Assembly (NCBI GenBank): GCA_004022145.1
Contig: RCNU01000002.1
DNA: 64,000 bases
Strand: one strand, 5' to 3'
Origin: Paecilomyces variotii
Lineage: Eukaryota
The notes under the pieces were generated by a model. It ran no database searches. It was not told where the DNA came from and saw nothing but the letters and a program-made list of their open reading frames with translations. Of the stretch, positions 2,740 to 47,478 are shown one piece after another. Each line of letters starts with the position of its first letter. The first letter of the stretch is position 1. The translations under genes and the position numbers were made by a program.

Positions 2740-3461
2740 ACTGATACCGGGAGATAGCGAGCCCGTGCGCTGTTCCATTTATATATGTCTGAATTTTGTA
2801 TCTAGCAAACCTACCTCAACTGGTTAATGTAGAAGCGTGGAGGTCAGATACTCAGGACATCGACATATAGAAGTACATAGACAGGAGTACATATTTATCT
2901 AATTAATTTTGCCTTTAGGACAACAAAAGGACTTTTCACTTCAGGCAAGACTAGAACTTTTGTGTGTTGAATTTTGCTATGCATTATACTCCGAACAACC
3001 GCTGCTGAATTCAACAGCAGCAATTGGCTTTTGGATGGCTTTGTCGTTACAGTTCTATGCGTGGATTGAGAAAAGAGCAGTGGACTTGACTTAGTATAAA
3101 ATTGACGGTATATAATTAACCACAACAGCGTTGCTGCTCCTAGGAAGATTGTTTTCCAGTTCTCTCCTTCCTGTCATCCCTTCGCACCAACACATCACTG
3201 GTAATTCATTGCCATGCCCTAACATCGCCCGACGTTTCTCCCAAATGAAAGGAAGCTAGCTATAATCAGAGTCGCAGGCAGGCTTATTCCAGCCGAAGAT
3301 TGATGATCCCATTTCAATAGACCTTTCCCGACCAGGTGTTGACACTCTGGAAGGAGATTTGAGCAGTATTCTGCGGAAACTATGATCAAATGATGTGATA
3401 GTGTCGAGGTTCATATCTTGCAGTGTACATTCACTGGTACCAAACATCAATATGCAACTAT

Positions 3462-5549
3462 TCAATACAACCAGGGTCCTAGTAAAAGTCAATATAATGA
3501 TGATCATAGAGGGAATTCAAAGGACGCGAATAAGGGTCCCCACCTTTAATAAAGTTATTTTCTTGTTCCACATGAGTCGGGATCTGTAGTGCCCGTGCAT
3601 GAACGACATTGATTGCCTGCATGGCATCTTCAGCCTTCACAACAAATCTACACGTAGCGAACAGACAAACATTAGCTGGGGCCAGGATGATATATGTAAG
3701 TCGGAGTAGAAAGCACATACGAAATGTTTATCTCACTCGCCCCTTGGCTGATGAGGTAAATATTGATTTTTGCGGATGCGAGTGCCGAAAATATCTCGTC
3801 TTGGGATTTGACCCGCGTCAGTTGAGTGTTTTCTTTTACTTATCGAATCTTTTGCAGACGAGTCTTACTTGCAGTGCCAACCATGTTGCGCATTTTCTGG
3901 CCAATAACAGAGACAATATTCATGTTTTCCAATATCGTTACCTGTTCTCAGCAATGAGCCACCGTCGATTTGCGGTAGAGAAGAGCAGAAGGACGAATAC
4001 TGACCGATCCAAATTCCTGCAGATCAAGTACTAATTTATTGGTGATGGTCGATGCTTGGATTGCAAGACTGACGTTTCGCTCACTCGTGGTGACCAAATC
4101 CGGAACTATGCCATTTCGTTCAAGTTGACAGAATACAGAAGCCAGGAAACCTTGCGACTTGGTGGTCCGGCTAGATGTGACGTTGATGAGAATGAGACCT
4201 TCTTTGCTGGTAATGGCAGTTGGACGTCGCCTGCTTCGAGATTGCCCATGGTATCCGTTGGAAAGCATAAAGATATCGTCTGGCGGACTCTCCTGCACTG
4301 TTTCCTTCACCTGGTGATCTGTCTCTGGAGTGGATGGGTAGATCACGGTCCCTGATCCGCTGGGATTGAGTACGTTTTTCAGTCTCAAGACTATCTCGGA
4401 CTTGTGTAGTTGTTCCATTGTGAGGGGATGGATGACCTGCGCGAAAACATGGCGTAGTGTCAGAACTCAAGTTGTATGCTATTCCTGATGATGAAAGACC
4501 CTGCTTTCCGGACTTACCTCGCTGCCAAAAAAGGTCAGTTCTGCAGCTTCTTCTGCAGTGACAGTCGCCAGAACTCGCGCCGATGGTACTTTTCTGGGAT
4601 CCGCGGTAAATATTCCATCAACTTCTTTCCAAATCTGGTATTCCATTGCAGCCAGGCCTGCTGCACACATCGCGCCACAGAGGTCGGAATACCCTCTACC
4701 AACACACCGGAGGAGTGAGTGAGGCATGAGGCCAAAATAACCTGGACACATATGCCATGGTGAGTTGATAAATAATAATTCTACACATCGTCTAAGAGGG
4801 TATACATACCAGTGATTACAGGCACCGCATCTGTAGATTCAGATACTATTGACCCAATCCTGCGCGAGAGTCGATGGTAGAATTCTGTTCCGAGACGTTC
4901 GAACTGCGATTCCTGTTCTGGCAGAGATCCGCCGAACACTTCTGCAACAATGTTATCCAGGTTGATGACTCGAGCAGGAATGCCCTCCTTGATGGTCAAC
5001 GCAGCCGCCACGATCTTGCACGCCAATCTCTCTCCTAATGAGAGCACGCGGTCTTTAGAGCGTGCAGACAGATCTCCCACGACCTGGAGGCACAGCAGAA
5101 AAATTAGTACAAAGCAAAAAAGACAGTGACCACTGCTCTTTCGAACCAAGACGTACGTGGGCTGCAAGAAGGAATCTGCGAATTTCTTCGCAGTCATTGA
5201 CCACACTCAGTGTGGTCTCACTGAGAAGCAGATCGCTAGTATCGTTGGAATAGGCCCGAAATGACTGCAATTTATCCAGATGGGCATCGCGGATACTATC
5301 AATAGTCGCATTTATATGACCGATTGATTCCACTCCGACGATCTCTGCACATCGAAGACAGTCGAGAAGCAAACTTGTCGTGCCGCTAGCCTTCGTGGTA
5401 CCGGATAATGCAGAACAGACGACGGCGACATTGTATGTTTTCAGATACGAGGGAATGATCGTCCCACACACTTTGTCCAGCAATTTTCCGAGGCTCGTAC
5501 CTCCATATTTCTGGACAATCCATGGCTTTGGGTCAGGGCGAATGGTCAT
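3462..5549 (-). CDS. Aspartate kinase (HOM3-like, with C-terminal ACT domains), multi-exon
   Basis: Motifs WIVQKYGGTS, VAVVCSA, DRVLSLGE, VGRGYSDLC, QIWKEVDGIFTADP and EAAELTFFGSEV, then ACT segments DLVTTSERNVS, VSVIGQKMRNMVG and INIYLISQGASEINIS. The last micro-exon reads GPWLY-stop at 3462. Confidence 0.9.
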
Positions 5550-6102
5550 CTTGGCTTCGTGAAGGCTACTGCTTAGACTCTCAGTCGACGAATGATCGGA
5601 TGGCTTATCGCATGTGAAGGAATATAAACAATAGCCAACAAGATGCAGCCGAGTGAGGTAAGTTATCACATATTTGACACTTGTGCCATCCTAAGTCCTA
5701 GAGAAACAAAAAGAAAGAAGCAAATGTCGATGACGTACAAACGAGCTTGTTCCAGAGCCCTATCGAGATCACGGTGTTAGAAACTCTTATCTACATACTT
5801 CACCCTGCCCGAACTGCAAAGACCGAGGTCACCGATTCGGGCTTCGTATCAAAGGATCGCCGTGTGCAGCCAAGAATCGATCCATGGACTGAACAGCCAA
5901 CTATCTATAACGACAACAGTGTATTTTGGCTATCTCCAACTCTGACGATCTTCACGTTATGATTAGGCTGACCTGAGCGGGCAATGCTATATGTAGAGCA
6001 CCTTCTCCAACGGAACCATACTTCTTGTCTATCAAACCAAGGAACACGACAAGTTAAAATAGACCGACAAAGTTATACAACTGTAGACAGCCCAAAGCAA
6101 TA

Positions 6103-7258
6103 ATGCATTCGACGGACATGTGCGAATCCAAGTCTTCTGAGCTCCCAGTGCAGAATTTGGAGATTAAATTCGGCCTCAACAAGTCCTTTGCGAATCCAAC
6201 GCCAATGTGAGTCTGTTCCCAGACCTGGTACAGAACCTCATCAAGCCTCGCTAACGTGTATACAAGTGCGGTGTTAGGCCTTGCCATAAGTGTTACGACT
6301 CTGGGCTGCGATCTCATGGGATGGAGAGGAGCTGGTGGTGATGGCGCTGCGTCAACGTAGGTTTGCTTGCCCTTTCGCACTCGCAAATTCCTATGACCTT
6401 GATGGTTGCAGAACTGATCAATTGTTTTCTGCAGAGGAGCTTATTTCTTCATGGGTGGACTGCTTATGATTCTGGGCGGGTTTCTTGAGTTTATCTTGGG
6501 AAACACGTTCACATTCTTTCTATTCTGTGGCTACGGTGAGTGGCTTAAATATATTCACAGGCTTGTGAGTACTAATATGACGGACTAATCGCTTCAATGT
6601 GGACAGGAGGGTGGTGGTTGAGCTTCGGTGCAACGCTCCAGCCTTTCTACGGAGCGTATGGAGCCTACTCGCCCGATGTCTCTGATCCTTCGAAAGGACT
6701 TCAGACGACTGGATTCAATGCGAGCTTTGGTAGGGAGCGTCTCTTAATTTCTTCTCTTGCACACCTTCTCTAGGGGCGGAATATCCTACCTCTATTCCCA
6801 GCGAGGGAGACAGATAACCAACAACCTTGTTGCTAACGACCAATACCAGCATTCCTGCTCGTATTTATGGGCATTTTCTCCCTCGCTTGTTTCTTGGGCT
6901 CATTGAAAGTCCATATTGCGCTTGCCGTGGTGGAGCTCAGTCTCACCATAGTCTTCGCGCTGCTGGCGGGTGCCTTCTGGGAGGTCGCTATGGGAAATGC
7001 CAGCGTTGCCTCGAACCTCCAGACGGTAAGTATAGTGACTATCCTCGTTTTTATACACTGCGTGTCCGAATATAAATCTAATTTTGCTGCCATTTGTGAT
7101 AGGCTGGCGGAGCTTTTCTTTTCGTCGCAGGCATTGCGTCCTGGTATATCCTCTTCTCGCTTACCCTGAGCTCTGTGGGATTTCCCTTTACACTTCCCGT
7201 GGGCGACCTCAGCCGTTTCCTCACGAAGGAAAGAAAGTTTAGTGACGCTTCAGTGTGA
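6103..7258 (+). CDS. GPR1/FUN34/YaaH (Ato/Ady2/SatP/AlcS-like) acetate/ammonia-associated membrane transporter, about 6 exons
   Basis: Spliced by eye: FANPTP signature, MGWRGAGG, YFFMGGLLMILGGFLEFILGNTF, GGWWLSFG..P.YGAYGAY, F.ASFAF, AGGAFLFV..WY..LPVGDLS. Only partly visible in the ORF track. Confidence 0.85.
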
Positions 7259-8002
7259 AGTTATGTGGTCCCGAGACATGATAATTGAAGTAGGCGGGGA
7301 AAGACTAAGCAATCTAAAAATTGAACTCGAAGGTGGAGTGGTACGCAAGACGCTGGTTGCAAAGGAAATTATGCTGGACGAATACTTTCAAGCTACGCAG
7401 TTCGTCCTGTTGAAGGTAGTCATTCTGGATTCTGATTACGGTTTTGTTTTCGGTAGAACTATATATAGCTACGATAATAATTGATAATGGTGGATATTCG
7501 GGCACTCCACTCCTTGTTTTGTCTGCAAATAATAAGTATAACTATTTCAACATAGATAACCTAGAGACATATGAATTACCTAACAGACAGCCATAAACTG
7601 CGAACTTAATTTGTATGGCGACTCTTTCGAGATTTACATTGCTTTCTCCAATGTCTGTGTCTGAAGCGACGTCAGTACGGCTGAGTTAAGGGTGCAGATA
7701 CATATGTTGTTTTTATCCTTCCAGGGGGTTGTCCTGATTCCGCCAAGGGGATCAGTTTTGGAACAAGTGGTGCCTGTTTCATACCTACTTCCTCACTCAT
7801 TATCTTTTTAAAGACGTATCGCATCTCTTTAATATTCCTATCAAATATTTACAATACCACAACAGCCCAAGAATAAAAGCTAATTTCAAATTTCTCCTAT
7901 GAATCTCCAGGTTAGATCACGTTACCACAAACCTGGTATATAGGCCCCTGCATAAATATTCAGAGATTCAGAAATTTCTTCTGTCTTTTACCTGGATAGC
8001 AT

Positions 8003-9233
8003 TCACACGTATCCCCTGATCGCGGCAATTTCGGCGTTCAGAATAGACGAACCCGCAGCACCAATGACAGTATTGTGTGAGAGGCAGACGAAACGGATAT
8101 CAAAGTAGCCGCCATTGCCACTTCGGACGCGGCCCACACTGACTGTATAGCCGTTAGATATGTTGCGGTCCAGTCTTGGCTGAGGTCGATCAGGCTCATC
8201 GAAGACTCTGATTGTCTGCTCTGGTGCCGAGTGAGCACCCAGCCTATAGGCCTCAGATTGGTGCTCTTGTAACGCCTTCTTGACTTCCTCAGCAGTTGGC
8301 GGCGGTCTGTTCTTGAAGCGTAGCGACACAAATGCCATATGGCCATCTGTAACCCCGACTCGGGTGCAAGTAGCGCTCACCCGTAGACCACTCTGTTCCT
8401 CGAACGCGGTAGAATCACCGTTTATAGAACCGAGGATCTTTTGCGCCTCGTTCTCAAGTTTGTCTTCCTCGCCACTAATATATGGGATTACATTATCCAC
8501 GATATCCAGAGAAGGGACACCAGGATAACCAGCTCCCGAGATAGCTTGCTCGGTGAAGACTTCCACTTCCTCAACAGGACCAAACTTGGCTTGCAGAGCG
8601 GCGAATGGGATAACGATTCCAATGACGGCACAGTTCGAATTGCATACTATGAAGCCTTTCTTCAAACCAAGCTCCTTGCGCTGATGTGGGATAATCTCCA
8701 AGTGCGACGGATTCACGGTTGGAACGACGAGTGGCACAAGCGGATGTTTGCGGTAGTTCTTTGCATTCGAGAAAATTGGGATTTCAGCCTTGGCAAATTC
8801 CATCTCTGGATAATAATCAGTGAATGAGATCCGTGTGATCTGTAGACTTACATGGGAAGTAAAAAGAGACAAGAAAACGAATGGGGGAAATACCGATATC
8901 GCCCGCAACATCGCTATCCAAACCGGAGAATACCAGGTCACAATCGCTGAACTCTGTAGCTTTGCAGGCTTGGATGACAAGTTCGCCCAACTCTTTCGAC
9001 ATGGGGACCGATTGCTTCCATATGACCGCATCTTTGTACTTCTTGCCCGCCGAGCGAGATGAAGCCCCGATCTTGTGTAATACGAGAAATGGGTGATCCG
9101 CGAGAAGAAGGATGAATCGCTGGCCGACGGCGCCGGTCGCTCCAAGGACACCTTGTATAGTCAGCGATGGGTCATAAGACTCTCTTAGAGGTTCAGACCT
9201 ACCGCACTTCTTCTTTGTGACTGCAGGTGACAT
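8003..9233 (-). CDS. Aspartate-semialdehyde dehydrogenase (HOM2-like)
   Basis: GVLGATGAVGQRFI Rossmann motif, FSNAKNYR, catalytic NSNC, NVIPYISGEEDK, QPRLDR and SHNTVIGAAGSSILNAE. Two introns. Confidence 0.93.
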
Positions 9234-9916
9234 AGTATATAGATGGTTTTGGCTGTAGAAGATTGCCTTGTTATCAAAGATATTCGAGTCTCTCTACCTA
9301 TTGAAAGTGCCAGTAAGGAAAGCGCAAAACCAAATGGCAAGGATCGCTATACAATACAACTTTTATGTATAAAAAAGGCAAACAACGCTCGTGTCAAAAG
9401 AGTTACACACCAACGCCGCTTTCGCATCTAGCGGATAGCTGGGGTAAAGGCGACGGAGAATATCACCGGCCCCAAAGCTGAGATGCCGTTGCTCATGCTG
9501 TAAAAGGAATAGCTAGGAATAATTGATAGTGGTTATGAGCAAGTTTTATTACTGTATCTTCATTTCTTTTGTTTTTATTCGTGTTTCGATCGCATCCTAA
9601 CTTCTTTCGTTCTACCTCGGTTTCTGAGATAGTTTCTTTCCATTAACCCTCTCAAGGGACGATCTGATGTCATTCATATTCCTATTAGCCCCGTATCCGT
9701 GCGGCTTATCAGTTGGCGCCATACTACAATAGAGCGTATAGTCGCACATCACCAAACACCGCGACTCTGATAAGCAAGAGTCCAAATCCCGCATATCCCG
9801 GCGATTCTTCTCCAGGAGAGAGATTAGTTCTCCCGACTGAACCCACAATCACCGACACTTCTATCTTTTGATTGAAACTGAAGAGAGTATCAGTCAAGCT
9901 ACTTGTGTGAGGCCCA

Positions 9917-12546
9917 ATGGACAAACAAACCTCTGAGAAGCCGAAACGGAGCGATACTCGGAAAGGACCAATTGCTCCGCCGGTCAAGTTAGCCTGCCTC
10001 GCTTGGTACGCTTTAGTTTCTCGAGTGCTAAGTTTAGCGGATGTAGAGTATTGCTCGGAAACTGACTTTCCGGTGAAGTAGGCGCTCACGGATACGTTGC
10101 GACGGCAAAGAAATATGTACAAATGTATGTTGATCTGAATCAAAAATAATAATAACAACAATTATAAGTGACGCGTGCATAACTAATCGATCTCTAGTGC
10201 CTGAGAAAGGGACAAGAATGTGCATATACGCCTAGTAGACGCGGAGGCGCTCGAACGAGCCGCCGTTTTACGCAAAACGGCATGCAGAAGAAAAGCGAGA
10301 ATAAACAGGCTCGACTCCGTAAGTACTCGGATGGAAAACAAAAATATGAAGGAAGAAGAATAGAAACTCTTGTTTGATCCGTGCTGCTAATGGTTTGCCG
10401 CAGTCCCAATCGAACAATACATTGAACCGGGGGCCGGACTTAGCAACCTCGATGACAATTTTCAGGACAGCGACTTGATCTTTGACAGCATTTTTCACCA
10501 TGATCAAGATGCCATTATGTCCGACTTTCAGCCACTTCGACCAGTATCACCGGTGGTGCGGGCATACCAGAGTGATCGTGACGTGTAAGCGTTCTGCTGC
10601 CGTGGGCCAGGCGTTCAACAAAGGTCTAACATTTTACTGTAGACTGGAAGCATACTATGTCTACATTCATCCATATTTCCCTATACTGCCTCCCCCAAAT
10701 TCGATACCCACTGATCGTCCCATTGCCGTTTCTGAAAGCGAACAGAATCTCAACAATGCTGATTACGAGCCTTCGTCACCTCTCAGCCTCGGCATCTTGA
10801 GTATATTATCGTTGATTCCTCATCCAGATGACCCGAACCCGGGTAGTGAAGAGGCTGTCTTATTCCGCAGGAATTATGCCGAGTGTCTGGCCCAGTCAGC
10901 TTTGGAAAGCATCAACATTGAAACCGAAGTACCGGCGTCCTCGACGTCGCCTGCGCAGGTTCTCTCTGAAGCCTCAGATGTATATCAGCGCGTTCCTTTC
11001 CATCAGCATGTGCCAGTCGAGTTAGAGAGCATAATCGCCCTTTCTATCTTGAGCATATATGAATACGCACAGCGAGGAAACATCAAAAGGATGCGTCAGC
11101 GAGCCGGACAGGCTATCATGGCAGCTATGGATATGTGTCTCCATAGTGAGTCAGAAATGGAGAAACCGGATGAATTCACAGAAGCAAGGCGCCGGGCTTG
11201 GTGGATGACGGTAGGCTCTCACCCCCAGCCCTGGAATAGATCTCGCGGCTAACACCAACCGCCAGTACATCTGTGTATGTCAGGGATCAATTGTCAGTGT
11301 CACTGTATGTCGGCCGCTCTCTGTGTCTCGTTTATTGTTGTTTGCGGCTAATCAAGGATGATCAAGGAACCGACAATATCTATTCATGATCCGAGATTTA
11401 CTACTCCATATCCTACGATTGGTGCAGACTCGACTGTAAGCATGGCTCTAACCGACTTTCACCCGTTTTGACCACCCTCACTTACACTCCAAATACCAGG
11501 CATGGTCCTTCTTTATCGATACCCAACGTGCGATCGTTTCTGCAACAGTGGCTGTTGTCGAATTAAACAAAGCTCTGAAAGCGGGAACTGGCCTTCAATC
11601 GAAGCTGGAGCGCAACCGCGAGCTTGACAATGAAATGAAGCTGCTAGCTGCCAAAGCTGACGCGTATCTCCCACCACATCGCAGTACGAGCTTGCTAGAT
11701 CCGGAAGAGTCCATAGTTGCAGATTGCTTGAAATTAATAGGGCGTATCAAAGTGAACAGGTTGGCAACCCCTGATTCTGCTGTTGAAGACGGAGGAACTT
11801 TTGCTCACACTCTCTCCAGCGCAAGGATCAAGCTCCATCGATACAGTGCTTTCTTCGATCTTCCACTGTTCTCGCAGAAACACTGCGACTTGCAGCCATC
11901 AAAGATGCGCGAGGATGGTTCAGGATCAGGGAAGTCTCCGATATGCTTATGCTCTACCTCGACCGCCTCCCTCCCTCTACCACCCGGCTTGTCCTGGAAA
12001 GATATGAGCTTGCCAGAGACACCCTCTTCCCTTGCATCAGATATGGGCTTGGGTGTTAGGGACCTTCTCGGACTTGGCAATCAGATGTCGACCAAGATTT
12101 GTCTCAAATCGGCGTTGAATATTGCTCAGTGCTTTGACAGACTCCCATATCCTAACCCCTATGGCTCGCTTGGTGCATCCATTTCTCTAACATCGAGGAA
12201 TCCAGCATGGAATACGGCGCTGCCTCGCACCATGCCGTCCTTTGCGTGCTGTGCAATGCAGAGTGGTTATTCGATGCTGATGGTCCGTCACAAAGTAGAG
12301 CTCATGCACCCCAAGAATTCTACAGCCAATCCCACAGTTGCGAAATTATACAGCCAGCTGCACGAGGGTCTACAATCTGTCGTTGGAGCCCTCGAGAATT
12401 ATTCCATCGCGTTCGAAGCGCTCACGGGTATGAGGGGTACGTGAAATGAACCATTAACCTCCTGGACACCAAAAATCTTACTGATTGGACTTTCAGATCA
12501 AATAAAAATGATGATAGGCTCTTTTGATCCACCTAGCGAGAGATAG
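9917..12546 (+). CDS. Zn2Cys6 (GAL4-like) transcription factor with fungal TF middle region
   Basis: The spliced N-terminus reads CLAC-RRSRIR-C-DGKEI-CTN-C-LRKGQE-C-AYTPSRRGG (C-x2-C-x6-C-x5-C-x2-C-x6-C) over three exons. The middle region has YYVYIHPYFPILP and EARRRAWWMTY. Confidence 0.9.
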
Positions 12547-13066
12547 GACGCAAGGATGTGTGGAGTAGAGGGGAACTACTAGTTTGGTGTTGTGCACTAC
12601 TGAGGCAAGAAAGGGAACGGGAGCCACTATGGAGTCGTAGTGGACTCGAATGTTAGTTTTATTTCTACAGTCCATATACTATCTTGTACCCACGGGCGTC
12701 TGCAATTCAGCATATTAGTTTAGTCTGAACGTAATCCATCGTGTCTCTTGCTCCGCGTGTTTGTCTTATTCCTCTCTTCAAGGCGGTCGACGCCAGCGGG
12801 CAGATGCAGCGAGAACCTTATACTGCATACCTATATCCGTGAAGAAAATGCTGTAGGAACTGTAGTCGCTGCAGATATACATAGAATCCGTAAGGGCTTT
12901 ATGGTAGTCGTCCAATTCAACTTATCGGATGAGAAATTCCCGGGATGTTGATGGGTTACCCATTCCTATTTCCATGCAAGAAGCATCGCCTTCTGTTATC
13001 TTTCGTTGAACTAGACGGAGTTTCCAGATGGCCACAAGATCAGTGTTGTTATGTGGTTAAACCGAT

Positions 13067-13116
13067 CGGTGTTTGGCTCGGGTGTTTGTGATCGGTGTTC
13101 TAAAGCCGGTGTTTGG
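13067..13116 (+). promoter_or_regulatory. Four spaced (C/G)GGTGTT repeats upstream of the sulfhydrylase-like gene; candidate Zn2Cys6 binding array
   Basis: GGTGTT starts at 13068, 13081, 13094 and 13108 (spacing 13/13/14), each within a CGG-containing word. GATA sites follow directly. Confidence 0.55.
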
Positions 13117-13345
13117 GCAGATAATTACCTATCGATGTTGAGACATCGAGATAACTCACACAAGTTAGATAAGGGACTTGGTTTATTTCTTTACTGAACT
13201 CGTTATTATAGAAGGATATATTATCCCAGATGATTCCGCAAATATTAGCACGTTTGACACATTAAGACAATCATCTTCTCTCTCACGATACTATCTCGGT
13301 AGCTACTTGCCATCCTTCTTCCGACAAGAAACTACTTCAGCCTCG

Positions 13346-15008
<1,663 letters not shown>

Positions 15009-15847
15009 AGATCTTAGACTTTTCTTTTCTTTTCTTTTCTTTTTTCTTTTTTTTATTTTTTTTTTCTAACGCAGTAATGCGATTGTCTGATTTTGTCTTC
15101 TAGTATACTACAATGTCCATATCCATAACGTGTCTGCTCACGAGATTCTGGAAATTTTAGTTAAGCAAACAATATGTTATTTCCTAAGTCCAAGATATGG
15201 GGTTATTCTTTTGAGGTTAAACATGATATTCCAATGTTCTACCCGGTAGATCATGTCATCTGTGCGTTTCCTAATTTTGACAATAGATAGAGGGAAAAAT
15301 ATTCAGCGAGTATGATCCCATTTGTACAAGTCCTGGTTAATATATGTCGGCGCATAAAGGCTATTACATAATGACCTGTCTTATTATCTGTTTGTACCAG
15401 GCTGTTGACATAGAACCTGCTAGATCCGTGTAATTAGGAGATAAGTATGGGGTGTACTAGAGCAAAGAAAGCAACCTAGCGATCTACTAGGTGGTTCGGT
15501 CATGATCTTACTTCCGCGCCATTTAAAGTTCGAGAGTATATATTGAACTGTCGGAACGAGGACAATGCCTTGATAGATTTAATTCTAGGAGGTTCGATAT
15601 GTACATCGGCTTATACTCTGGGACCAATCACATACTAAGTGGAATTATGAAATTATTGTTATCCATTGTTACCAATGGCAATTTCTTGATTCACTGGCTT
15701 GCAGTCTACCGTTCGCTTCCCAAGTCTCGCTCACTTAAGAACACGCATCAACTCCTCCGCGTTTAGTCCCTTGCAATGAAAATGGATTTTCGAAAATGTC
15801 AAAATGCAATGCGCTGAGTTCCATTTGTTCTCTATTTAAGATCCCAC

Positions 15848-17373
15848 TTACGCCTCTTTAAACGACACATTTACGCCTGGTTTTGTGTTGACGGTCAAGG
15901 AGCTAGAAAAGAAACATCAGTTTGTCAGCAGAACTCTCGCCAACGGTATCTAGATAGATAGCTTTCTTACAAGATATCCGGCCGTGAATAGCTACCGACA
16001 GGGTCGAAGTCCAACTGCGCGAGGTGGATTTTGATTAGTCCAGAGCAGAATATCTAACGCCGTTGGATTGAATTGAAACTCACCCGAGCCTCTACGATAT
16101 CGGACTTGTTCAACGTTGCGAGTATTATTTCCTCTTTGTCCCACACTGGCTGTGAGACAAAGGTGCCAAGAGGCCCAACCACGCAGGAACCGCCATGACT
16201 CAGGATGTCGTCTGGCTCCCATCGAGACCCATCGGGCTTGCGGTCGTGGTGCTCCGGTGTAAAAGGGGGGTAGTCAGAAGGGAAATCGGATACCTTGCGA
16301 AGAAAAGTCGGATTAGCGAGGGATCTCTTTTCTCCCTGGCTCTCAAAACAAGAAAAGATTTAAGGAGGCCAGAAGGGGGGGACGAAGAGATTACAAACCT
16401 TGCAGAACTGGTTTACTGAAATAACAAAGCATCGCCCTTCTTTCGCAATATGCTGCATTGTTGCGATCCAGCTTGGCAGGTCGTCGGCATTGGGGGCGAT
16501 GTATATTCTGACCATTGAGTAAGGTTGCGGTCTCGCGAGGTCAAGTGTCAAAAAGGGGGAAGGGGACTCACTCGATCCCTTGTTGGTACAATGCCAGGCG
16601 CGCAGCAGGCATGTAATTCTCCCAACTAAATGGATTATCAGAATAAGCCATATAAGCATGACAAAAAACAAAATAAAGGAATGGTTTTGTTACCAGATGA
16701 GCCCTCCGACTTTGCCAATATCAGTGTCGACGACATCCAACCCGTCACCGGCGCCTCTACCCCAAACCAACCGTTCAGCCGCCGTTGGGATCAACTAAGA
16801 ATCCATCAATCAATATGTCAAAGCTAACAGAAGGTATATAGGTAGGTATTGTATACTTTGCGATGTCGGCTCAAGACGGCACCGTCGCGACCCAGAAGCA
16901 ACGCTGTGCAGTAGAGAGTCCCGCCGTCTTTTTCTATAATTCCCACTGAAAGGTAAACGTTGTTTTCCTTGGCTATCTCACATAACTGATCCATTTCTAC
17001 CGAAGGAATGGCAACAGCTGAGTTGTAGTATTTAGCATACCACTTGCGGCCTGCTTCCGGTATTAGGCTGGCAAACACTTTCACGATAGAACGCGGGGTC
17101 CACACGAACCTCGAGGCTCTCGCGCGCCAATTGTTGCATCAAAAGCGTACCTCCATGGATAGGCCGACAGGAAACCCTCCCTAAGACCCCTTAGCTGCCA
17201 ATTTTCGCAAAATTCGAGGGGGCGAAAACGCACGGGAAAACGACGAGGTTAGCTCCTGCTGCTGCTGCTTTCGAGGTAAACTCGGCCACTTTCTGTATGC
17301 TTTTTGGCAAATCAAATGAGACAGGAGCAGCTTGGATAGCTGCAACCACGATGCTGTCGGACAATTGAGACAT
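15848..17373 (-). CDS. Nitrilase (carbon-nitrogen hydrolase, branch 1), about 8 exons
   Basis: Spliced Glu-Lys-Cys triad: [23 protein letters not shown] and GGLIC-WENYMP, with the Cys codon split by an intron. Also [19 protein letters not shown] and [15 protein letters not shown]. Stop at 15848. Confidence 0.92.
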
Positions 17374-17896
17374 GTTGTTCGGGGTGGATTTCGTCTGTGT
17401 CGGGCGCCGATATCCTGTCATATGGAAAATATAAGGGAATAATAGAGACGGCTATGGTATGCTATTTTAAATAGCACGCGAAACGAAGGAAAGAGAGAAG
17501 AAGAAACAGAAGACTTGAAACCTCTGGGAATGCCGGTAAAAGGTGCAAATAGTTTCCATTGGCTCCGCGGTGATACTGATAGATATCTCGGGGCTTATCA
17601 GGAACGAAGATCAACTAAACCCGATGAACGGGCTTTGCAAGGCGAATCAGCAAACGCCGAATGAACAGCCCAGTATTACGTATCGCTAATTGTTCCATTC
17701 TATACAAACTGTTAACAATGGGGATATTCGCCCTTGTACAACATGAAATAAAACATAAGAAATATGCAGTGGAAGGTATTCTGCCATCCACGCAATCACC
17801 CATCTACGACGTTGCTCTTAGAAGACAGCTATTATGGCTATCGGCAAGTTTGAGATCCTCCCGGATATGCTTTTTACTTCTATAGACAGGACTAAT

Positions 17897-19296
17897 ATGA
17901 GCTTAATAGCACTTGACTACAAACCAGAGCAGCAAAATCCTTTTACAGAGCTCATCTCTGGTCAGCGCATCGCACTGATCCCGTCTTTAACACTTGAGTC
18001 CGGGCATGTGCTGAAGTCGTGCCAGGTGGCCTACAAGACCTGGGGCCAGCTCAATTCCACCCGTGACAATGTGCTGGTAATCTGTCACGCATTATCTGGG
18101 AGCAGTGATGTTGCAGATTGGTGGGCGCCTCTCATGGGCCCAGGGAAAGCCTTCGACTATACCCGGTTCTTTATTTTTTGCGGAAATGCGCTCGGATCGC
18201 CATATGGAAGCTCATCGCCCTTGACAATAAATGTTGACACTGGACTGCCATATGGCCCTGAATTCCCACCCACCAGCATTAGGGATGATGTAATGTGCGT
18301 ACTGAAATGGATATCCCCAAGTGTACTATATACGGGACTTTCGTTGCTAACTTCTTCCGCGGAAGAGCCCAGAAGTTAGTTCTCGATGCATTGGGCGTTT
18401 CGTCCGTCGCTGCAGTGATTGGAGGGTCCATGGGAGGCATGACAACGATCGAGTGGCCTCTCTGTACGCCGCCCGGCTTCGTTAGGACAATTATCCCTAT
18501 TGGAACCTCAGTTGCTCAGAGCGCTTGGGGGATTTCATGGTCTGAGGTCCAGAGGAGATGTATTCGCTCAGATCCTCTGTTCCGTGACGGTTACTATGAA
18601 CCAAACCAGCAGCCGACATCCGGTCTTGCGACAGCGCGCATGGTGGCTATGTTAACCTACCGTTCAGGGGAGAGTTTCGAGAAGCGATTTGGCAGAAAAC
18701 CGTCCAGCCAAACTAAGTGTTTAACACCACCTGCAGAGCCAGCAGCATGTAACGGCTCATCATCTAAACTGCCAGTGAAACCACCATCACCGGCCTTGGG
18801 CAACTCGACTATGAGGCAGTTTTCTGCACAGGAATATCTCGACTACCAAGGAGCCAAGTTTCTGCGTCGTTTTGACGCAAACTGCTATTTACACTTGATC
18901 CATAAAATGGATATGCACGATATTCGGCGTGGTCGAGTCCCTGAAGACTGTCATCTCTGTTCGAATGGCGAGGGAACGCTTCCAGACAACATCACGGCCA
19001 AAGTACTGTCCCGCGTACCGCCGCATGCCTTGGTCATTGGCATCGATTCTGATGTTCTTTTTCTCCCTGACCAACAATACCACCTGGCCGCTTGCCTTCC
19101 AGACGCCACCTTGACGATGCTCAAGTCGTCGGACGGACACGATGCATTTCTGCTTGAGTTCGAACAGTTGAATCATCTGATTATTGACAGGCTGAAATGG
19201 TTATTTCCAGCCATGTACGAAGGATTCACGGAGAGAGTAGCTGAGGTTGACATGCCCAATTCGACGAATAAAATCAGTGTGGGTGAGCTGGACTGA
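17897..19296 (+). CDS. Homoserine O-acetyltransferase (MET2-like, alpha/beta hydrolase fold)
   Basis: Motifs VICHALSG, NALGSPYG, GPEFP..IRDD, nucleophile GGSMGG, GLATARMVAMLTYRS, RFDANCY, GIDSDVLF and DGHDAFLLE. One intron near 18291-18362. An alternative upstream in-frame ATG lies at 17834. Confidence 0.93.
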
Positions 19297-19507
19297 TGGA
19301 GACGGCCCAGAATTCGAATACTGTGTGCATATACCTAGGCAGATGAACATCGTACCACACATGGGTTAGGACTTTAATAAGAAATGGATTGTGTGACATT
19401 GGTTCCACCGCACCTGAGTGAATGATCTATCTATGCTACTCAACCCCGTACCAAAAACCCTTCCCGGCATTCGTTCTCACAGCAACTTAATGAAAGAAGA
19501 ACCCACT

Positions 19508-19798
19508 TCACCCTTCTTCTTCAATCACCTCCAGGATCTCTACCTCGCTCTTCTTCTTCATCCATAACTCTCGTACACGACCCCTCTTTTCAATCTTCCA
19601 TTTCGTACTCGACGCCCTCTGTCCAGAACACGACGTCTCAGATCGCGAGGAACCATAACGTTGCAAAATGGTACCATCGTTGCGTGGCCAGTGCTTTTCG
19701 GGTATCTTTTGTCGAGAAGAATATGGTTTTCTGTGCTGGAGACCATAGAGGAGACCGAGTGTCCCTAGGATGGGAAGGACGATAATAAGGTGGTTCAT
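19508..19798 (-). CDS. Hypothetical small protein with N-terminal hydrophobic anchor
   Basis: ATG-started ORF of about 96 aa (MNHLIIVLPILGTLGLLYGL..). No family recognised. Confidence 0.3.
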   Translation of the reverse strand: MNHLIIVLPILGTLGLLYGLQHRKPYSSRQKIPEKHWPRNDGTILQRYGSSRSETSCSGQRASSTKWKIEKRGRVRELWMKKKSEVEILEVIEEEG

Positions 19799-21263
19799 GG
19801 TCTTATGTTTTGTCTTTCTGGAAAGGTGTGATTTCTGATTATTATTTGGCAGTTTGGGATATTTTATATGCAGATATAAATGGCTGCATGTGGGGAGAGA
19901 ATATTTAGCACCTTGTCCTTGATGAAAAATCAATGAGACAGGTTTACTTTCCATTGCTGACACCAGTCTTTGTGATGCCATAGAAAGGCTTCTGAGGCGA
20001 TACTGGATTGTCCGCGATAAAGACCAGCCTTCCTGGGAACATCTTTTGTCACTTGCGACCTGTATTATCCTTTGTATTCACTCTAAAAGGCGTATGTCAG
20101 TGCTAATCATTGCTAGGTAGTTCTGGAACATTATCCCCCTTCATGCCAATATCCTTTTACCTCCTGATCGAACTTCCCTTACAACCTATCCTAGAGAACC
20201 TAGCTTTCACAACAATCGACTTTCTCTTCGGTACGATCCTTTGAATCGTCATTCCCCCCTCGCAGCATCACCACTACCCTCTACAGCACTACTCTCCGAT
20301 GGCACAGACTTAGCCTGATCTTCCATTTCTATTACTGCTTCTGTTCTTTTAGACCCTGTGCCATCGCTCCCTTAGACTCGCTCCGTCCGACTGCTTCCTA
20401 TCAAACGCCCATTGCAAGATCTTCTTTCTGGATCATTGAGATCCCGTGTACCTGGTGGACCACGGCTGATTTCTATATGACCACAAGGGTTCCAGGTGAC
20501 AAGGACGGGAGCCCGAGAATACTGAAGGGTAGACACTTCTGAAGCTTCTGGCATTGCGTTTAAGGTCCTTCTTTAAGACAGACTATGAAGTAGCGAGCGG
20601 AATGGGGACACGTTTAGGGGAAGTTATCAAAATAGCGACGATAGATGGAGGCTATAGAATGCAGAGATTCATGTTTAAGGGATAGAATCCGTGGAACTCG
20701 ACGTATGATTGAGTATTGGGGTCTGATTAAAATAGCAGTCTTTGTCGAATAATCCAATATTGTGATTCCAGGCAGAATCGACAGGGTTAGTGTGTAGCAT
20801 GGCTGATACCCGTAGGAACGGCACTTGACAGAGAGAAGCGCTATGTTTTGGAGAAATATCAACAAGTACCATCTTACTATACCCCTCACAACTGAAGCGA
20901 ACTATCGGGATATACCGATATGGATCACGGGAATATGACAGAAGGAGATCAGCCTATTGTTTATAATTCTGACAGCCGCCTGGATTGCTTATTCCCATAC
21001 TATGCGGATCAATCTGTGAATACTACATCTTTATGTGCCCATGAGCTACGGAATCTACATCGGGCGAGTACCAGAATACGTTATAGGCAGCCTGGATAAT
21101 GCACAAATCTTAAATTTGATATTCATTTGTCCTATCTCCCATCTGTAAAATATTGCCCCGGTGGGCCCCAGACATCATGATCCGGATTCCTAATCGACAA
21201 AAACTTTAGTACTGTATAAGTCATTCGTCATGTCAGGGGATCAACACACCTCAAGAGAGTCTC

Positions 21264-36288: not shown

Positions 36289-38157
36289 CTAGATGGGTCC
36301 ATCTGTCACACAACCATGGCTGGCATCGCTGACCAGGGTGGAATACTTCTTCAAAGTTCCCTTCTGGTATCTGAGTGGAGGTGCTTTCCACTCCTTTCTT
36401 CTTTTATCCAGTTCTTCAGTCGGGATCTCCAGATTAACCACTCTTTCCTCAGCATCAATCACGATCTTATCACCGTCTCGCGCCAGCGCAATCGGGCCTC
36501 CCTCCATTGCTTCGGGCACAATATGACCGATCAAGAATCCATGGGAACCGCCGGAGAATCTTCCGTCTGTGAGCAGCGCGACGTCCTGGCCAAGACCAGC
36601 GCCCATAATGGCCGCGCTGGGTTTAAGCATCTCAGGCATTCCCGGACCACCCTTGGGACCTTCGTACCGGATGATAACGACCGTCTTCTCGCCCTTCTTG
36701 ATCTCCCCTCGCTCAAGGGATTCGATGAATGCGTCTTCGTAGTCGTAGCACTTGGCTGTGCCCTCGAACCGTAGGCCTTCCTTGCCAGTGATCTTGCCCA
36801 CGGAACCACCTGGGGCCAGCGATCCGCGGAGGATCTGGAGATGGCCGGATGGTTTGATGGGGTTGCTCAGGGGTCGGATGATGTCCTGATCAGCAGGGAA
36901 ATCGGGCCACGAGGCTACATTCTCCTTCATTGTTTTACCGGTGATGGTGATTCCTGAGCCGTCGATCAGGCCTTCCTTTAGAAGGTATCTGAGGATAGCT
37001 GGTGTGCCGCCAATCTTGTATAAATCGTGCATAACATACTTTCCAGATGGCTTCAAATCAGCCAGGAATGGCGTCTTGTCGGACACTGCTTGGAAGTCAT
37101 CGATAGTCAACTTGATGCCGACAGAGTCAGCAATAGCAATTAGATGCAGGACAGCGTTTGTGCTGCCACCCAAGATGTTCACCACAATCATTGCATTCTC
37201 AAATGCTTGACGTGTCATGACATCCCTGGGCTTAATGTCTTCCTTGAGCATATTCTTAACCACCTCGCCAATGTTTTCACATTCGACCAGCTTCTTGGGA
37301 TCATCTGCCGGACAACTACTGCTCCCGGGCACTGTCATACCCATTGTTTCAATGGCCGTCGCCAGCGTATTGGCCGTGTACATGCCACCACAGGCACCTC
37401 TGCCGGGGCACGCATTGCGAATGATATCGAATCGCTCTGTCTCGTCGATCTGGCCTGTGATATACTGCCCGTACGACTGGAACGCACTGACCAGATCCAA
37501 CTTTTGACCCTTTGCACTGCATCCGGGCTTAATGCTACCACCATAGATCATGACACTAGGCCGGTTCGTGCGTCCCATCGCCATCAACACTCCAGGCATA
37601 TTCTTATCGCAACCCGGCAGCGACACGTTCGCATCATACCACTGGGCATTCATTACAGTCTCAATGCCATCAGCGATGATCTCACGACTCTGCAAGCTGT
37701 ATCGCATTCCCTTTGTGCCCATACTGATCCCATCAGATACTCCAACGGAGTTGAATCGCATAGGGACCAGACCCGCCCGATGGATAGAATCGCGCACGAT
37801 CCCAGAAAGGTCGTGCAGGTGCATGTTGCATGGGTTACCCTCGAACCATACAGAGGAGATACCGACCTGCGGCTTCGACATATCCTCCTCTGTTAGGCCG
37901 GTCGCATACAGCATTGCTTGTGAGGCACCCTGAGATTTGGGTTGTGTTATTGTCGATGAGATTCTGTTGAGGCCATCGTCGGACTTATAACGGCGCGAGG
38001 TAGGCAGAAGGCGTCTGACGATTAATGTCAGGTTAGCATTTTTCGCGATTCTGAGGAGAGATTTAACACATTACGATAGGAGATTCTCGTACATGCTGTT
38101 GAACTGAGCGCGTCGGCTTGATGCCAGAGCTCTAGCTCTGATATGCGTCGCGAGCAT
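36289..38157 (-). CDS. astD: Dihydroxy-acid dehydratase paralog (AstD-like self-resistance enzyme), 2 exons, about 596 aa
   Basis: Motifs [59 protein letters not shown] and [14 protein letters not shown]. The N-terminus is Arg-rich and presequence-like. It lies next to a terpene cyclase and P450s. Confidence 0.88.
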
Positions 38158-38358
38158 AGTTCGTGCTTGCGGATACGTGCACGGGGACAGTGTTTAAGAG
38201 GGAGAAAACTGATGAAGGAAAAAAAAGAAAGAGTAAAAAGGTTCACTGTGTTCAAGAACCAAGCCTGTAAGAAGACTCATGGCCACACAGCCGTGACTAA
38301 GATGACAGGGCTCAATAACGTAGGATAGTTGATGTGTTGCTGGGTTGTTGCCCTCATT

Positions 38359-38381
38359 CCGGAGTTGCGACCCAACTCCGG
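38359..38381. promoter_or_regulatory. Perfect 9-bp inverted repeat CCGGAGTTG-N5-CAACTCCGG upstream of astD
   Basis: Read directly, about 200 bp 5' of the astD ATG. It contains CGG/CCG triplets. Confidence 0.4.
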
Positions 38382-39101
38382 CCTCCGCCCTGAACAAGCT
38401 CGGTGGTGGCCGGACTGGATCTACTTAGCAGCTTGATCTTCGCCCCCATGCAGGGGTTGTCGACTCATACACCAATTATATAACTGGTTATTGCCTTCGT
38501 TCCTATTATTTAAGATTATCCACCACTGCGGTGCGTCGCGCCGCTATGTTATATAGGATCTAGACAATCTTGACGATCTGTAGAATAAGGATCCGGTGCG
38601 AGAATGCTAGCGGTATCAAGCACCTGAATAAGATTTCAGATCCACGTATTTCAAGTCTACTCCGTACTGAGTGCTTATTGCATCTCAATTATGTGTATTC
38701 GAATAATATGCACACACCCCGGGCGCAGAAAGTGGATGATCATAACTAATTTGGGTCGACCTCTATTCCAACTCCGCTGTGTCGAAATAAACCGCAATCT
38801 ACGGAGTATTGATCCTAGCCGTGCTCATGAGAGATGCAGATTTCCTCCCCTGGGAAGATCACCATTGCTACAACTAGCGTCCGCAGCAAAAGACACGTTT
38901 GGATCCTCTTCAGGTGGGTCTCATTAAGATCAATGATCGAGGCTATAATCTGAATAAGCACTACTTGAAGTACGGAGTATACAGGTAATCGGTGTCTGGA
39001 TCTCCAGAGGCTCGTTTGGTCAATGGCAAACCTATTGGTAAGTGTTGCATTTGATTTGTTCGTAGCCTAAATATTCGTATCTTGGGATGATCTTGGTTCC
39101 A

Positions 39102-39102
<1 letters not shown>

Positions 39103-39138
<36 letters not shown>
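39103..39138. repeat. Poly(A) homopolymer of about 36 nt (poly-T on the astA sense strand, 3' of the gene)
   Basis: Read directly. Confidence 0.9.
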
Positions 39139-39140
<2 letters not shown>

Positions 39141-39213
39141 CGCAGGAAGGGGAAATAAAACGAATCTATAAAACGAAAATCTTTTTGTTGACATAACCTT
39201 TCCTTTCCGCTGC

Positions 39214-40431
39214 CTAATGAGAGTTCCCCCTCAAATAACGCATCGCCCATCCAAACAGATTGATTACTGAGCTCGCCACGTAATCCATTTTGTGATACTG
39301 GGGTGCATCGACGGAGAATGCAAACGCGTTGGTCTGATATGCCTGTGTCTCAGATCCTTTGGGGGCCGGCCCATCGACTTCAAAGCCTTCGACTTGGCAA
39401 GTCCACTCCTCGATATCCACCCATCCCACACCGAGCGCCTTGTCAAAGTAATCGCGGAACTTGACTCCCGACTCTTGTAAATCGTTGCGCTGGTAAATCT
39501 CCCGCAATCTGTATCTGAAGTCGCAAATGTGCCACGTTACGTAACCGTGGATAAAGCCGCGGATGGTGGCCAGCAACTCCGGGTCTTTGTCCTTCAATAG
39601 TTCCAAAATCCGTATGCAGGCATGGATTGAATCGTCGGTGAGACGTTGGAGGGCCTGATCCATCGTGATTCCGTCCACAGTGCACCAATTGGTAACCAGA
39701 TTGGCTTCGTCCTGGTCGTATTCTTTGTAGAACGAGAAGAGATCGTTCATCAAGGCAACGGGCCCGTCGATTTGGGCCATTACGCAAGCGATCTCTGTAA
39801 AGAGCTTCTGGTCGTCGAATTTGGCCGCGGGGAACAGGGTCCCTGCGACAGCACCACCGAGACAGTTCAACCGTCGCAGGAACAGAGGATAGCAGTCCGC
39901 GCCACGGTAGCCCTGGAAGTTGTGTTGCTCGATCCAGCACCCTTCAAAGTAATCAAAAGTGCAGCGCATGATATTGAAGGAGCAGAAGCTGCCATAGTGG
40001 CTTAGGAGGCGGGGGAGATGAGCATTGAACAGCACCCAGAAGGGGTGCTTCTGTTGTTTGCCCTGAATGAGGTCTACCCAGAAGGTGGCCATCTGGGTAC
40101 TAGGGTCGTGGTTGATCTCATCATCCAGAACGTTGATGATGGAGAGATAGATGCAGACGTCTACTTGGGCTTCTCGAGGTAGTCTACTCCAGCAATAGAC
40201 AATGAAATGGGAAATGGTCCGAGTGACAGCAGCAATTCGGCGGGGAGCCACACCTTTGAGGATTCTCCTTGGAAGAGGCTCAGTAAAGTATTGTGCTGTC
40301 TTGGAATAAACATGACGAAGGCCTTCAACACGCTCATCGTGTGTTAGGTTGTCATCATGGTACTCAATGGCATCAAGGAAGCGCACAATGGAGTCACAGT
40401 AGGTGTTGGCGGGAAAAGTCTTCATATCCAT
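39214..40431 (-). CDS. astA: Trichodiene-synthase-like sesquiterpene cyclase (AstA-like, daucane/carotane synthase)
   Basis: Single exon of 405 aa with [28 protein letters not shown], the NSE motif NDLFSFYKE and GYVTWH.CD.RYRL. Confidence 0.88.
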
Positions 40432-42139: not shown

Positions 42140-42440
42140 TCAAATCGTATTTGAAAGTTTGTTAGTATTTATCCTGGAAGAAGAATAGCTGTTTACTAGG
42201 GCAATTCGAATGGTATGTCCAACTATCCCACAGCCACTACAGCGTTGGGGCGAAGAAAAAAGTACGGGAACAAGCTGTCTTTGAACATCAAACTCAATTC
42301 CCTCATTGCGAAATCCTTCTTCCACATCCAATTTTATATATACTCGTCCCAAAACAATTTTCAGTCCCTCAATGTTTCGAGTAAGCAGCTTACCGTTGGC
42401 CCGTGCGGTCAGCAGTTGGCGGGCCGTGAGCTCGTCCACA
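42140..42440 (-). mobile_element. Probable degenerate DNA-transposon fragment (C-terminal zinc knuckle)
   Basis: RCSGCGIVGHTIR followed by CPSK after a 1-nt frameshift. This is the CxxC-x3-GH-x4-C knuckle typical of fungal DDE transposase C-termini. No catalytic core or paired TIRs were seen. Confidence 0.45.
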
Positions 42441-42543
42441 AACGGCGATCATCGTCGATAGATCTAGATCCTGGAACACGCGGGGCTAGCGACCTCTGCA
42501 TAGCGCCAAAAATGTAGCTTGATGCTGAGTGCTTACTTAGTGC

Positions 42544-47394: not shown

Positions 47395-47478
47395 TCTGGT
47401 GATCACGAAATTACCGAGGACAATGCTGAAGAAATGATCTGTCTGGCAGATGCAGATGGTGATGGGAAAATTTGCTGA
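47395..47478 (+). pseudogene. Calmodulin-like EF-hand fragment
   Basis: Reads SGDHEITEDNAEEMICLADADGDGKIC-stop, resembling calmodulin's last EF-hand (LTDEEVDEMIREAD.DGDG.I). No intact upstream frame. Confidence 0.4.

Follow-up and report, generated by a model that had tools for sequence, protein, structure and literature searches.

A gene cluster of filamentous ascomycetes that may capture cyanide on O-acetylhomoserine

We analysed a stretch of 64,000 nucleotides of Paecilomyces variotii (GenBank assembly GCA_004022145.1, contig RCNU01000002.1; hereafter the window), in which an earlier reading of the sequence alone had proposed an undescribed cluster for cyanide assimilation. The seven genes of this cluster encode enzymes of the aspartate pathway, an enzyme dependent on pyridoxal 5'-phosphate (PLP), a nitrilase, a regulator and a putative channel. 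Our analysis suggests that they may capture cyanide on O-acetylhomoserine (OAH) and convert it to glutamate or glutamine. We give this reading slightly less than an even chance, as cyanide was chosen by parsimony and we infer every chemical step. We are much more confident that the seven genes, including the nitrilase, form one OAH-dependent functional unit. The genes are the following:

3479-5549, minus strand: aspartate kinase (AK), by similarity a cluster-type paralogue; 7 exons, 547 amino acids (aa)
6103-7258, plus strand: putative small-carboxylate/ammonium channel of the GPR1/FUN34/YaaH family; 6 exons, 249 aa
8003-9233, minus strand: aspartate-semialdehyde dehydrogenase (ASADH); 2 exons, 380 aa
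9917-12444, plus strand: Zn2Cys6 transcription factor (TF); 9 exons, 665 aa
13346-15008, plus strand: Met17/MetY-like PLP enzyme for gamma-replacement, cluster-type paralogue; 4 exons, 474 aa
15848-17373, minus strand: NIT4-like branch-1 nitrilase; 9 exons, 325 aa
17834-19296, plus strand: homoserine O-acetyltransferase (HTA) of the Met2/MetX type, putative paralogue; 2 exons, 463 aa

Gene models were scripted from GT..AG introns, with the introns of the TF and of the nitrilase taken from spliced RNA contigs of run X1. They place exactly these seven genes, all bearing introns, and no other gene in the span 3479-19296. Together with Pfam scans of single exons, the models recovered every gene in the order and orientation that had been proposed. 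They also show the three head-to-head pairs, with no unrelated gene between them: AK/channel (spacer of 553 bp), ASADH/TF (683 bp) and nitrilase/HTA (460 bp). The genes of the PLP enzyme and the nitrilase are arranged tail-to-tail. The remaining spacers of 744, 901 and 839 bp are too short for an additional gene. The right bound proposed for the cluster (19296) was confirmed, whereas the left one, put at 3462, must be moved to 3479, where the stop codon of the AK ends.

Across Eurotiomycetes, Sordariomycetes, Dothideomycetes and Lecanoromycetes, the core of the cluster (AK, HTA, PLP enzyme, nitrilase and TF) stays linked. As the linkage recurs in four classes of Pezizomycotina, it is more than chance. 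We read synteny in fungi from contig sizes, accessions, locus tags and fused gene models, using three protein searches and three cluster look-ups. We compared the 120 listed relatives of the HTA with the 120 listed relatives of the nitrilase (query: residues 1-325 of P0120, 72% identical to the nitrilase of the window). HTA and nitrilase were on contigs of equal size in at least 24 named species and on one further contig. Some of the shared contigs are small, e.g., in Colletotrichum sojae (18.7 kb), Melanomma (49.9 kb), Sporothrix curviconia (53.6 kb) and Thermoascus (91.6 kb), and another measures 59.0 kb; contig sizes also matched in three Biscogniauxia assemblies. P. variotii and Rasamsonia emersonii are in both lists, but with HTA and nitrilase rows on contigs of different size; each P. 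variotii row represents a cluster of 21 sequences, and the Rasamsonia rows differ in their strain or locus-tag labels. The accessions of HTA and nitrilase were one to three apart in all nine species looked up, and their locus tags are adjacent in Thermoascus thermophilus (847/848) and Pycnora praestabilis (2181/2182), i.e., accessions or locus tags make the two neighbours in each of the 11 species checked.

The other core genes follow the same pattern. Four consecutive accessions of Aulographum hederae (KAF1985606-KAF1985609) are the nitrilase, the PLP enzyme, the HTA and the AK. The AK (accession ending in 383) and the nitrilase (ending in 381) of Colletotrichum sp. SAR11_59 lie on one contig of 107.8 kb, and the accessions of the PLP enzyme and the nitrilase of Lepidopterella palustris are two apart on a contig of 20.2 kb. 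Two gene models are fusions of neighbours: nitrilase with PLP enzyme in Xylaria polymorpha (P0120) and TF with PLP enzyme in Colletotrichum cuscutae (P0014). The sequence-only reading had named a nitrilase that does not stay linked in other genomes as evidence that would speak against it; we found that the nitrilase stays beside the HTA, and that the PLP enzyme, the AK and the TF are linked too. In Parahypoxylon ruwenzoriense, the model of the PLP enzyme (P0006) carries a fused DSBA-like domain of the thioredoxin fold (PF01323), which hints at a different downstream neighbour in this species.

By its phylogeny, the PLP enzyme is a long-branched paralogue that falls outside the housekeeping Met17 clade. 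It matches PF01053 on three exons (E-values of 3.6e-79, 5.8e-21 and 1.1e-22), which cover profile positions 1-80, 82-304 and 309-380 of 381. Its 94% identical P. variotii counterpart, P0001, passes the subfamily cutoff of TIGR01326 (OAH_OAS_sulfhy; 595.5 vs 495.1), yet misses those of all 24 other models listed; against the homocysteine synthase model NF006096 it scored 547.6, for a cutoff of 726. In a tree of 46 rows, the protein of the window and 17 relatives (74-96% identical) form a clade with a support of 100 in the Shimodaira-Hasegawa-like approximate likelihood ratio test (SH-aLRT), whose stem measures 0.8 changes per column. The 18 housekeeping Met17 rows of ascomycetes form another clade, and the basidiomycete rows are likewise separate, which counts in favour of the earlier reading. 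Branching within the clade roughly tracks the fungal classes, which suggests an ancient duplication followed by many losses rather than a recent transfer.

Eleven alignment columns discriminate 15 cluster-type rows from 25 housekeeping rows. Among them, the enzyme has D51, K55 and W58 (numbering of the 474-aa model) where yeast Met17, Fub7 and the MetY of T. maritima (TmMetY) alike have H, L and L. In the sequence alignment, these residues are 7-14 residues N-terminal of the position of the Tyr-x-Arg loop, which in TmMetY forms part of the lining of the neighbouring subunit's distal substrate pocket (excerpts of PMC8191291). The equivalents of all seven TmMetY residues Tyr58', Arg60', Tyr113, Asn118, Lys210, Arg270' and Arg405 are identical in the alignment to 7kb0, and the enzyme has an S-x-T-K motif at 215-218. 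The roles of the TmMetY residues have been described, and Arg270' is held to exclude large second substrates (excerpts of PMC8191291). The MetY pocket residues and the PLP lysine are kept. The first substrate is probably still OAH, and the second is plausibly a small one. Cluster-type PLP enzymes also have in common about 40 C-terminal residues past the Met17 fold (14950-15008 in the window; P0003-P0021), which lies outside the alignments with yeast Met17, Fub7 and TmMetY.

Among the precursor-supply genes, the AK matches PF00696 (2.1e-14) on exon 4518-4739 and has a weak ACT match (0.0069) below the cutoff. Over its full length it is 55% identical to the AK of Colletotrichum sp. SAR11_59 (P0364), whose accession is two from that of the nitrilase, and 51% identical to the AK of Aulographum (P0373), whose accession comes directly after that of the HTA, compared with just 41% for two other full-length AK representatives. 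By similarity, it groups with the nitrilase-linked AKs as a cluster-type paralogue, which supports the earlier reading. The HTA matches PF00561 (3.3e-14) and has alpha/beta-hydrolase motifs at 173-178, 381-386 and 410-415 (G-x-S-x-G nucleophile, C-terminal Asp/His). It is 97% identical to a P. variotii protein (P0241), and the annotated P. variotii HTA begins at Met25 of our 463-aa model. The HTA rows among the 120 best matches listed are all from ascomycetes, many of them nitrilase-linked. In a tree, all 45 ascomycete rows taken from these matches, which include no undoubted ascomycete housekeeping Met2, fall in one clade against six basidiomycete Met2 rows. The patchy species list and the linkage to the nitrilase suggest that this HTA is a paralogue of the housekeeping Met2.

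The ASADH matches PF02774 (4.7e-36) and PF01118 (6.4e-17). Its best solved relative is the A. fumigatus enzyme (5jw6, E-value 1.1e-150), to which its large exon is about 83% identical, as counted on the alignment. The Trichophyton enzyme (4zhs) is only about 60% identical, estimated by eye from the alignment, and the Blastomyces enzyme (6c85, 3.4e-104) has a score similar to that of the Trichophyton one. A. fumigatus is absent among the 120 HTA and 120 nitrilase cluster-type matches listed, so this ASADH looks to be of the ordinary Eurotiales type. A search of the ESM Atlas with the ASADH exon returned only generic ASADH clusters and does not inform on orthology. However ordinary the protein, its gene is embedded between those of the TF and the cluster-type AK, and it catalyses the step that follows the AK, which is unlikely to be an accident.

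The supply genes bear on whether the locus is simply an ordinary threonine/methionine neighbourhood, i.e., the normal HOM3, HOM2, MET2 and MET17 copies with the nitrilase as an unrelated neighbour. The cluster does share its enzyme families and catalytic motifs with the fungal housekeeping Met17/CysD, Met2, Hom3 and Hom2, and an ASADH so similar to that of A. fumigatus would be expected under this explanation. Yet only the ASADH looks housekeeping-like: the PLP enzyme is not part of the Met17 clade of housekeeping enzymes, the AK has greater identity to nitrilase-linked AKs than to two other full-length AK representatives, and the nitrilase was linked in every species checked. In addition, cluster-type proteins occur patchily across fungi, e.g., within Fusarium only species of the F. 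solani complex and F. nematophilum were among the matches listed. We therefore regard a housekeeping neighbourhood as highly improbable.

The nitrilase is, by sequence, of the NIT4 type, in branch 1 of the nitrilase superfamily. It matches PF00795 on four of the five exons tried, and the motifs with E48, K135 and C169, which we take to be the Glu-Lys-Cys catalytic triad, are present. With P. variotii P0152 it shares 99% identity. Among solved structures, NIT4 of A. thaliana (6i00, 2.4e-90) comes first, about 43 orders of magnitude ahead of the next best, the cyanide dihydratases (6.4e-47); the E-value for cyanide hydratase was 2.5e-33, and the cutoff of TIGR04048 (Nit6803) was missed (199.9 vs 502.6). 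This NIT4-like character supports the sequence-only reading. The mtnU-type 'nitrilases' of methionine salvage, presumably not of this type, were dropped from consideration. In PMC3228920, mtnU is described as a nitrilase of unknown specificity.

A characterised NIT4 homologue of fungi, NitAb of Agaricus bisporus, prefers beta-cyano-L-alanine and is said to have 'several hundreds' of relatives in Pezizomycotina, with over 500 homologues that share more than 50% identity in Dothideo-, Eurotio-, Leotio- and Sordariomycetes (excerpts of PMC7503981). NitAb and NitTv1 are fungal NIT4-type branch-1 nitrilases, and the clade of the window nitrilase has the same taxonomic spread. NitAb would be the one characterised enzyme of a group to which the nitrilase of the window probably belongs. 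The accessible text of the NitAb report, supplements excluded, mentions neither gene neighbourhoods nor the gamma-cyano substrate, with no occurrence of 'neighbo', 'homoserine', 'aminobutyr', 'glutam' or 'cyanobut' (PMC7503981).

Given the preference of NitAb, the cluster might instead run through beta-cyanoalanine: the acetyltransferase would acetylate serine, the PLP enzyme would beta-replace the acetate with cyanide, and the nitrilase would release asparagine or aspartate. The NIT4-like nitrilase suits such a route. TIGR01326 spans bifunctional enzymes that use OAH or O-acetylserine, and fungal CysA-type enzymes, which belong to the same family as the HTA, acetylate serine. The best solved relative of the HTA is CefG (2vat, 2.4e-87), a deacetylcephalosporin C acetyltransferase, rather than a MetX enzyme, although MetX enzymes also match; the sequence does not single out one acceptor substrate. 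But the conserved AK and the embedded ASADH indicate homoserine, not serine, and the PLP enzyme is of the gamma-family PF01053 with MetY pocket residues. Known beta-cyanoalanine synthases are of the CysK type (PF00291), which is absent from 3479-19296 and the flanks, where the sole PLP enzyme is the PF01053 one. These observations make the beta-cyanoalanine route improbable.

The conserved set comprises a supply pair, a gamma-replacement enzyme, an amino-nitrile nitrilase and a regulator, and the cyanide route is the shortest chemistry that uses every part. In this route, the dedicated AK and the Met2-type acetyltransferase would drive aspartate to OAH, with the ASADH assisting in the lineage of P. 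variotii and the homoserine dehydrogenase step borrowed from primary metabolism. The dedicated copies would presumably escape the feedback control of the threonine/methionine pathway. Fusaric acid biosynthesis offers a precedent for an OAH supply unit of AK, HTA and a Met17-like enzyme (excerpts of PMC10967133). The neofunctionalised Met17 paralogue would then eliminate the acetate of OAH and attach a small nucleophile to C-gamma; this is most likely cyanide, so that 2-amino-4-cyanobutyrate and acetate would result. The NIT4-like nitrilase would hydrolyse the nitrile to glutamate and ammonia, or to glutamine. The Zn2Cys6 TF may switch the set on, and the channel may handle the released acetate, ammonium or both. 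The net reaction would be aspartate, acetyl-CoA and HCN to glutamate or glutamine, which would detoxify cyanide and yield nitrogen. A broader version of this reading is also more tentative: the Met17 paralogue might be a true gamma-cyano-alpha-aminobutyrate synthase, and the NIT4-type nitrilase tuned to the gamma-nitrile, in hundreds of filamentous ascomycetes. Plant pathogens, endophytes, spoilage moulds and lichen fungi would then possess a dedicated and separately regulated fixation of cyanide carbon and nitrogen into glutamate or glutamine.

The same genes could serve synthesis. We consider it unlikely, if well worth weighing, that the cluster makes a gamma-substituted non-proteinogenic amino acid, secreted or used in signalling, from a nucleophile other than free cyanide. 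The nitrilase would then act in tailoring, or in self-protection against a nitrile product such as cyanohomoalanine, a methionine analogue. Among the closest parallels is the FUB module of fusaric acid, where an AK (Fub3), an HTA (Fub5) and a Met17-like enzyme (Fub7) are likewise clustered as a supply module with Zn2Cys6 regulators, and where Fub7 uses OAH for its gamma-substitution (excerpts of PMC10967133). Fub7 is also the second-best solved relative of our PLP enzyme (2.2e-146), a pathway-specific Zn2Cys6 factor is typical of secondary-metabolite clusters, and the clade of cluster-type PLP enzymes stands on a long stem, with residues altered close to the pocket loop. Moreover, 2-amino-4-cyanobutyrate is accepted by E. 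coli methionyl-tRNA synthetase and is 'natively produced by Chromobacteria' (excerpts of PMC13320846).

The cluster also differs from FUB. By E-value, its PLP enzyme has no greater similarity to Fub7 than to yeast Met17 (4.8e-151), and makes up a clade of its own, in a tree that was built without Fub7. Against such a synthesis, neither the seven genes nor the immediate flanks include a polyketide synthase (PKS), a nonribosomal peptide synthetase (NRPS), an NRPS-like reductase, an oxidase, a flavin mononucleotide (FMN) oxidase or a cytochrome P450; compared with FUB, the cluster lacks the PKS, the NRPS-like reductase and the oxidase and has a nitrilase instead. In the same span and flanks, we also found no gene supplying cyanide or a nitrile. 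As far as our observations go, the conserved core consists only of AK, HTA, PLP enzyme, nitrilase and TF, and a nitrilase that destroys the product suits catabolism more than synthesis.

Another pseudohalide or a sulfur nucleophile could take the place of cyanide. For example, thiocyanate might react with OAH and the S-cyano product be hydrolysed to homocysteine, CO2 and ammonia, which would make the cluster a source of sulfur and nitrogen. The gene logic would be the same as in the cyanide model, and the PLP enzyme descends from a homocysteine synthase. This route is pure inference, and we are not aware that any NIT4-type nitrilase acts on thiocyanates; we consider it quite improbable. The enzyme class does tolerate several small nucleophiles: azide is an alternative one for OAH sulfhydrylases (excerpts of PMC6271081).

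Several observations weigh against the cyanide reading. The ASADH may be a housekeeping copy, either the only one of the genome or a recent duplicate, and no homoserine dehydrogenase was found in the cluster and flanks by Pfam scans of exons and flank ORFs. The over-supply of OAH, as first proposed, is therefore supported only in part. Fub7 retains the equivalent of Arg270' as well and is reportedly active on a larger partner, so this residue is no proof of a small nucleophile. The substrates on which NitAb was assayed were beta-cyanoalanine and non-amino nitriles, not a gamma-cyano amino acid (excerpts of PMC7503981). The cluster also occurs in the lichen-forming Pycnora and Hypocenomyce, where exposure to plant cyanogens is not obvious. 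Furthermore, the coupling has no independent bacterial echo: we took the 80 metagenome loci of the nearest bacterial relatives of the nitrilase (44-51% identity), with flanks of at most 10 kb a side, and searched them by tblastn (E<1e-10) with the models of the four other enzymes, of the channel and of the TF. None of the 80 prokaryotic nitrilase loci had a homologue of the PLP enzyme, HTA, AK, ASADH or channel, and the TF model had no match either. Finally, the four promoter regions have no 7-8-mer common to all four and no 9-10-mer common to three of them.

The promoter regions also lack a consistent CGG-Nx-CCG site. One repeat may nonetheless be a candidate site for the regulator, although it is a weak lead:

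13067-13114, plus strand: CGGTGTT[TC] repeats, three copies within 50 bp, about 250 bp upstream of the gene of the PLP enzyme

A fourth copy is at 9754, in the ASADH/TF spacer. Over the whole window, the seven observed copies are not above chance (mean of 5.6). The TF itself matches PF04082 (6.1e-08) and, in its residues 12-663, shares 45% identity with the N-terminal portion of the C. cuscutae fusion P0014. Its CX2CX6CX5CX2CX6C motif is intact only after removal of the intron 10006-10078, which the RNA contig retains: the X1 contig starts at 9931 and stays unspliced across this first intron (region 9931-10124), which reflects either intron retention or an incomplete transcript end. The assignment of the channel is the weakest of the seven. 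PF01184 matches two short exons (1.6e-4 and 0.061), both below the gathering score, and four of the six exons have no match. The two matches are colinear (profile positions 53-85 and 170-206), and the introns are all GT..AG. The GPR1/FUN34/YaaH family is tied to acetate and ammonium transport.

The cluster is transcribed. The contigs of run X1, which are 100% identical to the window, have seven spliced joints in the TF and eight in the nitrilase, all GT..AG or CT..AC; these are the 15 joints listed, and there are 20 further ones. An RNA contig covers the ASADH, and the piece matching the HTA begins at the boundary of its exon 2 (18366). The contig in question spans 18366-20117 and extends beyond the stop codon of the HTA into the downstream region. 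Read depths derive from contigs and are left out of any expression ranking. Runs X2-X4, which are metatranscriptomes of food fermentations, gave unspliced or partial contigs with 95-99% identity. A contig of 24 kb from a food-fermentation RNA library is colinear with 3000-20254 at about 96% identity; this relative is very close, and therefore shows only the same 17 kb order and nothing about conservation.

We found no publication on this combination of fungal genes in the full texts of open-access PMC and bioRxiv, in agreement with the claim that the cluster is undescribed. The kind of pathway, replacement by cyanide followed by a nitrilase, is already known. In plants and some bacteria, beta-cyanoalanine synthase and NIT4 likewise combine a PLP-dependent replacement by cyanide with NIT4-type hydrolysis to an acidic or amide amino acid and ammonia, and the proposed pathway would be its one-carbon-longer analogue. 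The plant route uses a CysK-type beta-synthase, whereas a gamma-family Met17 paralogue (PF01053) is found here. Its carrier is cysteine or O-acetylserine and its product aspartate or asparagine, instead of the proposed OAH and glutamate or glutamine; and here, in contrast to plants, the genes are clustered with their own precursor-supply genes and regulator. The apparent novelty lies in the use of a gamma-family enzyme, in OAH as the carrier, in a C5 product and in a fungal cluster that is conserved and brings its own supply genes. The chemistry of the proposed first step is that of the bacterial gamma-cyano-alpha-aminobutyrate enzymes of Chromobacterium and of a thermophilic Bacillus, whose OAH sulfhydrylase reportedly forms this compound. 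PMC8955678 lists a related reference, which deals with the O-acetylserine enzyme. To our knowledge, the bacterial activities are side reactions or stand alone, and neither a nitrilase nor supply genes are linked to them; we know of no organism in which a C4 plus C1 cyanide route exists as a gene cluster.

If the cyanide reading is true, the cluster would be a third enzymatic answer of fungi to cyanide, beside cyanide hydratase and the rhodanese-type routes, and one that recovers both carbon and nitrogen. It would account for the high frequency of NIT4-like nitrilases in Pezizomycotina. The cluster would be relevant to fungi that attack or inhabit cyanogenic plants, to food-spoilage moulds and to bioremediation, and it would provide two enzymes of biocatalytic interest, a synthase of gamma-cyano amino acids and a nitrilase that acts on gamma-amino-nitriles. 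Should the substrate be something other than cyanide, the conserved unit of AK, HTA, PLP enzyme, nitrilase and TF would still be an uncharacterised OAH-based pathway. With four or five proteins and one regulator, the pathway is directly testable.

Both flanks are unrelated to the genes of the cluster. An Alg9-like mannosyltransferase is encoded upstream (1246-2739). The downstream flank (19.5-27 kb) has only short open frames, and none of the four ORFs scanned there scored above the cutoff of any Pfam family. Further downstream, at 36289-50376, a dihydroxy-acid dehydratase (36289-38070, PF00920 and PF24877) adjoins a terpene synthase of the TRI5 type (39214-40473, PF06330, 1.4e-189), with three cytochrome P450 genes nearby (42773-44059, 45080-46567 and 48805-50376). 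This region looks like a sesquiterpene cluster with an enzyme of branched-chain amino-acid metabolism, a layout that we take to be reminiscent of resistance-gene-guided herbicide clusters such as that of aspterric acid. Beyond it, a single open frame of 1940 codons (51959-57781, plus strand) encodes an AAA_11/AAA_12 helicase with an RZ-type zinc finger at its C-terminus.

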